Assembly (NCBI GenBank): GCA_028875085.1
Contig: JAPPFU010000083.1
Location: 1-26,737 of the forward strand
Length of the DNA stretch: 26,737 bases
Direction: 5' to 3'
Source of the DNA: Chloroflexota bacterium
GTDB lineage: Bacteria > Chloroflexota > Dehalococcoidia > Lucifugimonadales > Australimonadaceae
Shown here: positions 10,652 to 23,379 of the stretch, piece after piece
Layout: every line of letters starts with the position of its first letter
Position numbering within the stretch: the stretch's first letter is position 1
The notes under the pieces: model-generated
Databases searched by the model: none
What the model was told of the DNA's origin: nothing
What the model saw: the letters and a program-made list of their open reading frames with translations, nothing else
Position numbers and translations under genes: made by a program

Positions 10652-10680
10652 GTAGGGACAGGTTTCAAACCTGTCCCTAC
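10652..10680. repeat. GTAG-type REP palindrome (GTAGGGACAGGTTT-C-AAACCTGTCCCTAC)
   Basis: Perfect 14-bp inverted repeat that begins with GTAG on both strands; intergenic. Confidence 0.8.
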
Positions 10681-19351: not shown

Positions 19352-19375
19352 GGGCGACCAGCCGGTTGCCCCTAC
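19352..19375 (-). repeat. Second GTAG-type REP-like hairpin (GTAG-GGGCAACC-GGCT-GGTCGCCC)
   Basis: Plus-strand stem GGGCGACC/GGTTGCCC (8 bp, one G.T) followed by CTAC. The TAG of GTAG is the stop codon of the 380-aa ORF. Confidence 0.6.
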
Positions 19376-20514
19376 GGAGAGGGCGGTAGGGCGCGGATGC
19401 AGTACACACCGGGCTCGGTGGGGATGTCGGAGACCGTCGCCTTCTCCATCGGATGCCAAGCCGACCAGGTGAGGCCATCTATGGCCCCATCTTGCTTGGG
19501 GAACTGCTTGTTGCCCCTCACGAACTCCCTGTTGTCGGAGCGCACGAACCCGGGTAGGCGGCCATAGGCGGCATGGTGCGCCCGGAGAAGCGCTGCCTCA
19601 CGCGCTTCACGAGTGTCTGTCTCTGCCCAGCAGACCTCCAACTGCCATCCGCATTCGATGACTGCCTTCTCAGCCCAAGCGAGGAGGCATTTCCCCTCGA
19701 AGGGTTTACCCTCGGTGTGCTTGACCGCGTGGTCTATCCTTCCGGATAGACGATTGTGTAGGTTGACTCCCTCTCCAATGTAGACCAACTGCCAGGCCGC
19801 CTCACGGGCGAGCCGCGCCCGCTCTCGCCGAACCTGGCGCAGCCAGTCATGGTCGGACTCATGGCCGTAAATGATAGGAATTCCGTCCTCGGTGTGGGTA
19901 GGCCTCTTCCCTTCTCGCTCCCGAAGGAGTTTCTTCCGAAATTCTTCCGCAACGGGACGAAGAAGCTGCCGAATCTCGTCCTTCCAATCCTCGATGGACG
20001 AAGGAGCCTTGGGCTGTGCCGGTGAGACGCTCGCCACGCGGTTGGCATCGCGGCGGATGTTCACCCAACGCTCTTCGCCGCCGAGCGTCATGATAGGGAT
20101 GGCCTCGCACACCGCTGCGATGAGGAAGACGCCGGGCGCCGCCGGGATGTTCGGCAGGTTGCTCTTGTGCATTGCAAGCAGGCCCGACCAGTTCAACGGG
20201 CCGACCTCTCCTTTGACCGTTACGCTGACTTTGTTGCCGGGGCTTCCCTTGAAGGACGGCTTGTAGCCGTGGCGCGCTTCGTGCGCCTCGACCAACGCCG
20301 CCTTGTGGTCGGCTGCGCTCTGGGCGCTCGGAAGCTGCGCCCACATCACCACGCCGTGCCAGCCGTCCGGGTCCTTCGACAGCGTCTTCTCCGCCGGGGA
20401 ACGGTAGCGCTCCGGGTCGGCGATGCGCCGCGCGATGGCCGCCCGCAGGCCTCCGGCTCCGGCTGCGCGGCCGATGTGCACCGCCTCCTCTTCCACGCTC
20501 GCCACGATTGTCAA
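19372..20514 (-). CDS. Hypothetical protein with two internal repeats carrying GIY-YIG nuclease-like motifs
   Basis: 380-aa ORF with a consensus promoter and AAGGAGG upstream; visibly more A/T-rich than the leu genes. Repeat 1: VHIG13-15 ... GNK ... LNWS ... IPAAPGVF. Repeat 2: VYIG245-247 ... NRL ... E306AALL ... YGRLP ... GNK ... LTWS ... IPTEPGVY. Exact start uncertain (TTG). Confidence 0.72.
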   Translation of the reverse strand: MTIVASVEEEAVHIGRAAGAGGLRAAIARRIADPERYRSPAEKTLSKDPDGWHGVVMWAQLPSAQSAADHKAALVEAHEARHGYKPSFKGSPGNKVSVTVKGEVGPLNWSGLLAMHKSNLPNIPAAPGVFLIAAVCEAIPIMTLGGEERWVNIRRDANRVASVSPAQPKAPSSIEDWKDEIRQLLRPVAEEFRKKLLREREGKRPTHTEDGIPIIYGHESDHDWLRQVRRERARLAREAAWQLVYIGEGVNLHNRLSGRIDHAVKHTEGKPFEGKCLLAWAEKAVIECGWQLEVCWAETDTREAREAALLRAHHAAYGRLPGFVRSDNREFVRGNKQFPKQDGAIDGLTWSAWHPMEKATVSDIPTEPGVYCIRALPPSP

Positions 20515-20548: not shown

Positions 20549-20676
20549 TAGCAGCGAATTCGTGGATGAGACGCTGGTTTGCCTTACGGAATGTCCCGTG
20601 CGGAACTAGCGCTCAAATGCGGCGATTATCGCCGTAATCAGCGCTGTTTCTAGCGTCTCGAAACGAGGGAATGCTA
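20549..20676 (+). ncRNA. Candidate structured RNA (long rod ending in a three-way junction); family unknown, strand inferred
   Basis: Hand-folded helices: 20549-53/20672-76, 20559-63/20663-67, 20568-77/20650-59 (10 bp), 20585-89/20596-600, 20607-13/20640-46 and 20618-25/20629-36. Five G.U pairs on + become A.C mismatches on -. Confidence 0.45.
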
Positions 20677-20681
20677 CGCTT

Positions 20682-20710
20682 ATTATACGGGATTCGCCCG
20701 CATTTGTCAA
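20682..20710 (-). promoter_or_regulatory. Perfect consensus sigma70 promoter pointing at the 380-aa ORF
   Basis: TTGACA (20710-20705), 17-nt spacer, TATAAT (20687-20682) on the minus strand. Confidence 0.85.
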
Positions 20711-20749: not shown

Positions 20750-20762
20750 GTAGGGACAGGTT
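20750..20762 (+). repeat. Half copy of the GTAG REP at 10652
   Basis: GTAGGGACAGGTT is identical to 10652-10664; the second arm is missing. Confidence 0.62.
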
Positions 20763-20776
20763 GCCTCTTACTCGGG

Positions 20777-22336
<1,560 letters not shown>

Positions 22337-22383
22337 GATGGTTCCCCGTTCGTTCCGTCCGGTGAGCGCCGCAGCGCCCGCGC

Positions 22384-23379
22384 CTAGTGCTGCTTCAAGA
22401 AGGACATCATCTCGCGTAACTGGGCGCCGACCTCTTCGATCTGGTGCCCCGCGTCCTGCTCGCGTAAGCGCTTGAAGCGGTGGCCGCCTTCGTGGTTCTC
22501 GGCGATCCACTCGCGGGCGAACGTGCCGTCCTGTATCTGCGCGAGCACCTGCTTCATCGCCGCGCGCACGTGGTCGTCGACGATGACGGGGCCGCGGGTG
22601 TAGTCGCCGAACTCGGCGGTGTCGCTCACCGAGTAGCGCATGTACTTGAGGCCGCCCTCGTACATCAGGTCGACGATGAGCTTGAGTTCGTGCAGCACCT
22701 CGAAGTAGGCGATCTCCGGCTGGTAGCCCGCCTCGACGAGCGTCTCGAACCCTGCCTTGACCAGCGCCGCCGTCCCGCCGCAGAGCACCGACTGCTCGCC
22801 GAACAGGTCGGTCTCCGTCTCCTCTTTGAAGGTGGTCTGCACGATGCCGGCGCGCATGCTGCCGACGCCCGCGCCGTAGGCGAGCGCGTTGGGCAGCGCC
22901 TCGCCCGACGCGTCCTGGTGGATGGCGACGAGCGCGGGCACGCCGGAACCTTGGGTGAACACCTCGCGCATGCGATGCCCCGGCGCCTTGGGCGCGATCA
23001 TCGACACGTCGACGTCGGCGGGCGGCGTTATCTCCTTGAAGTGGATGTTGAACCCGTGGGCGAACATCAGCGTCTTGGACGAGTCGAGGTGCGGCTCGAT
23101 GGCGCTCTCGTACAGCCCGCGCTGGACGGTGTCCGGAACCAGCACCATGATGACGTCGGACGCCTTGGCGACCTCTTCGGGCAGGGCGACGGACAGGCCC
23201 GCCGCCTCGGCGCGCGCGCGGCTCGACGAGCCCGCGTGCAGGCCGACGACCACGTCGACGCCGTTGTCGCGCAGGTTGAGCGCGTGGGCGTGGCCCTGGG
23301 AGCCGTAGCCCATAACGCCGATGCGCTTGCCCTCCAAGCGCGAGGGGTCCGCGTCCTTCTCGTAGTAGACCGTTGCCAT
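22384..23379 (-). CDS. ilvC: Ketol-acid reductoisomerase
   Basis: [49 protein letters not shown] and [10 protein letters not shown]. Confidence 0.97.

Follow-up and report, generated by a model that had tools for sequence, protein, structure and literature searches.

The homing-endonuclease gene of phage T4, I-TevI, is controlled by an RBS-sequestering hairpin together with autorepression. The leaders of ompA and aprE are 5'-terminal stabilizers of mRNA, and the known stabilizers are simple hairpins located at the extreme 5' end. IS10 RNA-OUT and the type I antitoxin RNAs act in cis as antisense regulators of genes that are mobile or toxic, and omega RNA (IscB/TnpB) and bridge RNA (IS110) are encoded beside their nuclease or recombinase. 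Here, we describe an element upstream of a nuclease-like gene which, as judged from sequence comparison, is a genuine, conserved, and uncatalogued three-way-junction element.

Genomic context and distribution

The window, i.e., the whole 26,737-nt stretch of DNA that was analysed, originates from a sponge metagenome. The genes ilvC, leuA (20777–22510), an orphan ORF of 380 aa (19372–20514), leuC, leuD, and leuB were all located on its minus strand, and the LeuA had 76–77% identity to those of Chloroflexota/Dehalococcoidia-type MAGs. The G+C content dropped from about 70% to 52–60% over the orphan ORF and its upstream spacer. With Pfam, the protein matched DUF7508 alone, below the threshold, and GIY-YIG-like models matched it weakly; the only NCBIfam match was sub-threshold as well, and searches of PADLOC and PHROGs gave no match. 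A literature search yielded no paper on DUF7508, and a link between guide RNAs and GIY-YIG enzymes was made in none of the papers listed. By these searches, the ORF, preceded by the putative leader discussed below, belongs to no confident family and is referred to as nuclease-like (GIY-YIG-like).

In another genome of the same genus (G001), the corresponding site was empty: leuA and leuC were 370 bp apart (L013:1131–1501), and the cassette, its promoter, and the element were all missing. Within the genus, the cassette is thus an accessory unit. A REP-type hairpin, GTAGGGACAGGTTTSAAACCTGTCCCTAC, was present in 18 exact copies in the window's own 1.49-Mb partial genome. In the window, a full copy was located at 10652–10680 and a half copy (the right half, after a deletion) at 20750–20762. 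Full copies were also found just upstream of the cassette promoter in two metagenome contigs, L002 (L002:5703–5731) and L009 (L009:610–637, with a mismatch in one arm).

These two ENA contigs and the window carried the only three copies of the element found in the collections searched, all of them upstream of leuC, and the order of promoter, element, Shine-Dalgarno (SD) sequence, ORF, and leuC was collinear in all three. The element is thus conserved ahead of homologs of the ORF. The gene order in L002 was ilvB-ilvN-ilvC-leuA, cassette, leuC; in L009, a glyoxalase gene was found upstream in place of leuA, with leuC downstream. The L002 contig had a frameshift in the essential ilvC and six insertions of 1–2 nt in the ORF (L002:5968–7160), which make assembly errors probable, and L002 is probably the weaker witness for conservation of the structure. 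The ORF of L009 (L009:851–1945) contained two in-frame stops, its linker and the motif region of its second domain were rewritten, and it may thus be a pseudogene or a pair of genes.

When protein collections were searched with the whole ORF or its N-terminal fragment, and representatives with HMMER, only two close relatives (P0002 and P0003) were retrieved, both encoded on these two contigs. A stand-alone 181-aa homolog of the N-terminal domain was found in genome G007 (L006:1880–2010, minus strand). It had a related promoter, opening with the same TTGACAAAT, and a leader of about 40 nt which was unstructured; therefore, the protein family does not require the element. This comparison suggests an insertion of the structured element between the promoter and the SD sequence or, alternatively, its loss from there.

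No second copy was detected in the window's own genome (77% complete) by BLAST or with covariance model R1, and the model gave no match in 57 genomes of the family or 150 of the order (206 related genomes), nor in 11 loci encoding single-domain homologs. Searches of genome and metagenome collections with the promoter pattern and the RNA-core pattern revealed no genuine further copy; the sole pattern match, L012, was rejected as a chance terminator between convergent genes. A phage collection searched by both DNA and protein contained no copy. The contigs of the source study yielded the same sequence again, with zero variants within the element. The element is rare, single-copy, and tied to the nuclease-like cassette.

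Secondary structure of the element

A first-pass annotation had proposed a structured element of about 128 nt at 20549–20676, and folding with RNAfold confirmed it. The plus strand gave −57.3 kcal/mol (z −4.87) and the minus strand a mirror fold of −46.1 kcal/mol (z −3.67), and on neither strand was any of 200 dinucleotide shuffles as good. With DNA parameters, the z-scores were −3.7 (plus) and −2.6 (minus). On the plus strand, two successive 5-bp helices were followed by an internal loop (GGAU/GAA) and by a helix of 11 bp, in which UGAGACGCUGG pairs with CUAGCGUCUCG; beyond it lay a three-way junction from which two arms extend. The nested rod and junction that had been drawn by hand were thus reproduced, with the helix formerly read as 10 bp extended to 11 bp.

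Five G.U pairs of the plus strand correspond to A.C on the minus strand: 20559/20667, 20576/20651, 20585/20600, 20619/20635, and 20567/20660. The annotated number of five was correct, and so were four of the named pairs; 20607/20646 is a plain C-G in the sequence, and its place is taken by 20567/20660. One or two G.U pairs were specific to the minus strand (20595/20590 and 20639/20615), where a single one had been annotated.

On the gene strand (minus), the conserved three-way-junction core, defined by consensus folds, double changes, and neutral simulation (see below), spans 20567–20660. It is closed by helix P3 (20650–20660 with 20567–20577) and carries a long arm made of P4 (20640–20648 with 20604–20613) and P5 (20629–20636 with 20618–20625; invariant UAA loop), as well as a short hairpin, P6 (20596–20603 with 20582–20589). 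The loops of the core are only 3–6 nt. In the minimum-energy fold of the window, the region 20549–20566 provides the 3' strands of the outer helices P1 (20549–20553) and P2 (20559–20563).

The sense strand of the core contained 52 A+C and 42 G+U. Shuffled cores had mean energies of −27.7 on the plus strand vs. −24.5 on the minus strand, i.e., the plus strand was better by about 3 kcal/mol, and its energy advantage is therefore partly compositional. The z-scores of the core (antisense/sense) were −5.9/−4.9 in the window, −5.3/−2.9 in L009, and −1.2/−1.8 in L002. When the full 5' UTRs were folded as single sequences, L002 and L009 favoured pairings other than the core.

The 3' strand of P3 (window 20564–20576) was complementary to codons ~42–45 of the ORF (window 20380–20392; ...GAGAAGACGCUG...; CDS nt ~124–135), with 8+3 bp in the window, 10 bp in L002, and weak pairing in L009. 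Within this match, the window and L002 differed by a paired C>U/G>A change. Long-range pairing between leader and CDS was treated as a probable coincidence, being weak in L009.

Conservation of the core

The core had 76% identity to the window copy in L002 and 61% in L009, and thus drifts about as fast as the third codon positions of leuA and leuC (73–85%). When the structure of the window was mirrored onto the relatives, 79.8% of cells could pair vs. 23–37% with the partners slid by 1–3 columns; seven pairs were changed on both sides vs. 0–2 in the slid controls. The column-shuffle control was equalled in 11–19 of 500 shuffles. RNAalifold, applied independently to the sense and antisense alignments, recovered the same core of P3, the P4–P5 arm, and P6 (20567–20660), with eight double-changed pairs in the sense and nine in the antisense alignment. 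In a neutral simulation, substitutions of the observed number and type were scattered over the core. L009 retained 21 of 31 Watson-Crick pairs vs. 13.5 expected (P = 0.003); in L002, 22 pairs survived vs. 18.9 predicted (P = 0.12, not significant alone). The outer helices P1 and P2 were not conserved: L009 was devoid of 12 nt of their 3' strands, L002 had mismatches on the sense strand, and both helices were missing from both RNAalifold consensus folds.

Covariation among homologous loci, which the first-pass annotation had named as a check on the element, is apparent from the double changes and from the pairs retained by L009, although this evidence is thin because it comes from three sequences. 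The comparison gives moderate support to the core as a selected structure kept by compensatory change.

The same data bear on the possibility that the element is a functionless palindrome-rich relic, e.g., of an old insertion located between the promoter and the RBS, which was inherited with the cassette and has not yet decayed. A relic would agree with the finding of just three copies in one syntenic block upstream of leuC and with a primary sequence drifting at about the rate of third codon positions. The non-significant pair excess of L002 and its weak z-scores (−1.8 and −1.2), the G.U and A.C classes occurring at neutral frequencies (see below), the outer helices already gone in L009, and the G007 homolog, which works with a short leader, point in the same direction. 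Evidence against it comes from L009, which keeps far more pairs than neutral drift allows, from the seven double-changed pairs, and from the fact that the element belongs to no repeat family in its own genome or in the 206 related genomes. We consider such a relic unlikely.

Promoter, 5' segment, and translation signals

A sigma-70-type consensus promoter with a score of 12/12 was located on the minus strand at 20710–20682 (−35 TTGACA, 20710–20705; 17-nt spacer; −10 TATAAT, 20687–20682). The −10 hexamer of the window ended six bases before the element, so that, at the usual −10-to-start spacing of about 7 nt, the transcript is predicted to start at about 20675 (20674–20676), the first base of the outermost helix. 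The promoter of L002 was identical to that of the window, and the one of L009 (TTGACA-17-TACAAT) was changed in 3 of 29 positions, one of them within the −10 hexamer. In all three copies, the promoter was found on the gene strand and ended 6–8 nt upstream of the element; it hardly changed among the copies while the core diverged. The strong minus-strand promoter noted at first pass, which would make the element a 5' leader, is thus kept in every copy. The 17-nt spacer of the promoter (20704–20688, minus strand) was identical in L002 and matched at 15 of 17 positions in L009, vs. 61% identity for the core of L009. It contains a small inverted repeat, GCGGG N5 CCCGT, which may be an operator, e.g., for autorepression.

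The 5' segment of the predicted transcript (20676–20661, minus strand), with the 5' strands of P1 (20672–20676) and P2 (20663–20667), was the best-conserved primary sequence of the leader (83% in L002 and 78% in L009 vs. 76% and 61% for the core). By reading of the alignment, it can pair instead with the 5' strand of P6, over 7–9 bp, in L002 and L009, and this pairing was present in the minimum-energy fold of L009. Such pairing hints at alternative conformations of the leader in these two copies.

About 30 unstructured nt were found between the element and the SD sequence. The tail (20548–20512, minus strand), as read from the sequence, contains the SD AAGGAGG (20536–20530) and the start codon TTG (20514–20512); ATG takes its place in L009 and in the G007 homolog. 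GGAGG was located 15 nt ahead of the start in each of the three copies, compared with 6 nt in the G007 homolog, the leader of which is unstructured. An in-frame AUC codon located 6 nt past GGAGG was conserved in the three copies. With an SD spaced by 15 nt, translation may begin at a non-canonical codon or may be initiated poorly by design. The predicted probability of the SD being unpaired was 0.79, 0.39, and 0.04 across the three copies, and sequestration of the SD by the leader was rejected since the accessibility differs to this extent. No intrinsic terminator-like site was detected on the gene strand within the leader in the three copies scanned; therefore, the leader is expected to be co-transcribed with the ORF.

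Strand of the element

From the G.U pairs, the first-pass annotation had favoured the plus strand, antisense to the gene, as the functional one. Core pairs which are Watson-Crick in the window are strand-neutral, and the strand test counted their cells in L002 and L009. Eight cells were valid only on the gene-sense strand and eight only on the antisense strand; with the outer helices added, the counts were 8 and 11, respectively. Counts per sequence in the core were 5/4 and 3/4, with 4.8 per class predicted by the neutral simulation. Wobble and mismatch classes thus occur at the neutral frequency on both strands, and selection therefore looks strand-symmetric. RNAalifold also gave an equal covariation term (−0.99) and 10 broken cells for each strand. 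Alignment columns 22/110, 36/69, and 81/94 contained completed compensatory changes with a G.U intermediate on the sense strand, equivalent to C.A on the antisense strand. The pair 20619/20635, A.C on the sense and G.U on the antisense strand, was invariant in all copies while its neighbours covaried. In terms of folding energy, the window and L009 favoured the antisense strand, and L002 did not.

The promoter-like site which abuts the element, conserved in place across the three copies, is the gene-sense one. A simple scan, which can miss weak or non-sigma-70 promoters, detected in none of them a plus-strand promoter-like site from which the element could be transcribed, and the weak plus-strand −10 candidate annotated earlier (TATACC) was not conserved in the relatives. 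Sequence comparison does not settle the strand, and the promoter context leans towards gene-sense. The G.U/A.C asymmetry of a single sequence is an unreliable guide to the functional strand here because it was lost in the homologs and partly reflects base composition.

An antitoxin-like antisense RNA had been among the first suggestions for the element. Transcribed from the plus strand in the manner of IS10 RNA-OUT, such an RNA would repress the nuclease mRNA by pairing at its 5' end, a brake that would presumably be of use where a very strong promoter drives a toxic nuclease. The better plus-strand folds of the window and L009 are in line with this, and so are the five G.U pairs seen on the plus strand of the window, of which one is invariant among the copies. 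On the plus strand of L002, a weak hairpin of 5 bp with a U-rich run behind it, located at the end of the element, would also fit. The energy advantage, however, is partly a matter of G+U composition, and the wobble counts show no preference for the plus strand (eight cells for either strand in the core, and 8 vs. 11 once the outer helices are included). Three compensatory paths would have to run through C.A mismatches on the plus strand, no plus-strand promoter-like site was found in the three copies at the scan threshold, and TATACC was not conserved. The energy still prefers the plus strand in two of three copies, and we regard an antisense RNA, weakened as it is by these findings, as quite unlikely.

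Comparison with known RNA classes

The search of the whole 26.7-kb window against Rfam 15 gave no match at the gathering score, neither to T-box nor to any other family. In the permissive search, the window element had two chance-level matches (14.7 and 6.8 bits vs. cut-offs of 100 and 235), and the element of L002 and L009 gave nothing at E ≤ 10. Membership in a known unrelated family, a possibility raised at first pass, was therefore not observed. ARAGORN detected no tRNA-like fold (0 genes).

Several candidate classes were considered and rejected. A hammerhead-like loop seen by eye on the plus strand (GGAUGAG...GAAAC) was not conserved in L002 or L009 and had no Rfam support, and a K-turn at the GGAU/GAA loop was discarded because the loop is absent in L009. 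Transcription-attenuation leaders (T-box or riboswitch with a terminator) were dismissed for want of a gene-strand terminator in any copy, and antisense control RNAs in view of the missing promoter and strand-specific wobble. The REP/MITE class is at variance with a single-copy element located next to a true REP with 18 copies. The class of omega and bridge guide RNAs did not fit an element which is single-copy and has no adjacent TnpB-, IscB-, or IS110-type protein.

The last class nevertheless leads to a further explanation, that the leader, perhaps released from the mRNA by cleavage, is a partner of the double GIY-YIG-like protein, to which it would bind and for which it would act as guide or scaffold. 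A guide or scaffold RNA and a single-stranded DNA structure acting in mobility had both been suggested earlier, and neither gained positive support. Tight linkage to the gene in a fixed order and orientation in all copies, a size and multi-helix shape like those of omega and bridge RNAs, and an orphan protein without a known partner would all suit a partner RNA. On the other side, the protein has no TnpB, IscB, or IS110 domains (Pfam), the loops are only 3–6 nt, and the unit is single-copy and devoid of transposon ends. A duplex scan covering each transcript up to the start of leuC revealed no conserved complementarity to the single-stranded 5' segment. No terminator or obvious processing signal separates the RNA from the ORF, and the single-domain relatives exist without the RNA. 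We give little credence to this explanation. The same holds for the wider notion of the RNA as a counterpart of the nuclease, be it a cut 5'-UTR RNA which scaffolds or targets the enzyme or a plus-strand antisense antidote to its toxicity, which is in our view hardly probable. A cut RNA of this kind would make the protein the first RNA-associated GIY-YIG-type enzyme. The importance of the element would be far greater if the RNA bound the protein or acted from the opposite strand, but no finding here points there.

A hairpin or cruciform at the DNA level, or a protein-binding site, recognized on single- or double-stranded DNA and serving a structure-specific nuclease or cassette mobility, would explain the strand-symmetric conservation of pairing (as one would expect where the duplex or both of its strands are of importance), the significance of the fold with DNA parameters, and the presence or absence of the cassette among close relatives (absent in G001), but is very improbable for a single-copy element which is located inside the cassette, downstream of the promoter rather than at a border, with no recombinase or transposase nearby, and the three-way junction of which is unlikely, as three-way junctions are, to extrude from duplex DNA.

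Proposed role as a cis-acting 5' leader

We place about half of our confidence in the element being a new, uncatalogued cis-acting 5' leader of the mRNA of the nuclease-like gene. On the coding strand of all three copies, it is located downstream of the predicted start of transcription and ahead of the start codon, and its structure is conserved among the homologous loci with the moderate support that three sequences provide. Transcription from the consensus promoter (20710–20682) would begin at about 20675, the first base of the element, and the first 95–130 nt of the transcript would fold into the P3 closing helix, the long P4–P5 arm, and the short P6 hairpin. About 30 unstructured nt, a strong SD, the unusually long gap of 15 nt, and the TTG start would follow. 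The combination of a consensus promoter, a TTG start, and a conserved 15-nt gap suggests that expression is deliberately shaped after transcription. We infer that the leader acts in cis on this mRNA and most likely adjusts the amount of the nuclease, a potentially harmful product driven by a very strong promoter. The folded 5' domain could shield the mRNA from 5'-end-dependent decay; alternatively, it could provide a platform, to which perhaps the protein itself binds, and thereby tune an already inefficient initiation site.

If it is a leader, the element would be a small uncatalogued RNA controlling an orphan nuclease-like gene inside a branched-chain amino-acid operon of sponge-associated Chloroflexota, and one more example of restraint on selfish or accessory nuclease genes. 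It would also be a well-defined RNA of about 95 nt with four helices, and one amenable to testing.

Comparison with known systems

By analogy, the element appears to work most like the leaders which restrain homing-endonuclease genes or stabilize mRNAs. With the leaders of the T4 I-TevI type, it shares a free-standing nuclease-type gene located between conserved host genes, a promoter of its own, and an RNA structure ahead of the start, as well as suboptimal translation signals, here the TTG start and the 15-nt SD spacing. It differs from them in having a 95-nt three-way junction and an SD which is not clearly occluded, and in belonging to an orphan gene, the product of which is a weak match to GIY-YIG-like models. 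As in the ompA and aprE leaders, the structure of the window copy starts only a few nt from the predicted start of transcription; in contrast to them, its terminal helices, P1 and P2, lack conservation, and the part that is conserved, the core, begins about 16 nt into the RNA.

The likeness to IS10 RNA-OUT and type I antitoxins consists in a highly structured region which overlaps the 5' UTR of a gene with potential toxicity and which folds at least equally well on its opposite strand, whereas no antisense promoter from which the element could be transcribed and no comparative wobble bias between the strands were found in the three copies. Omega and bridge RNAs likewise are structured non-coding stretches of about 100–150 nt adjoining a nuclease-type gene in a fixed orientation, but the element described here accompanies an unrelated protein family and has neither transposon ends nor multiple copies nor, in the transcripts scanned, a guide-like conserved complementarity.
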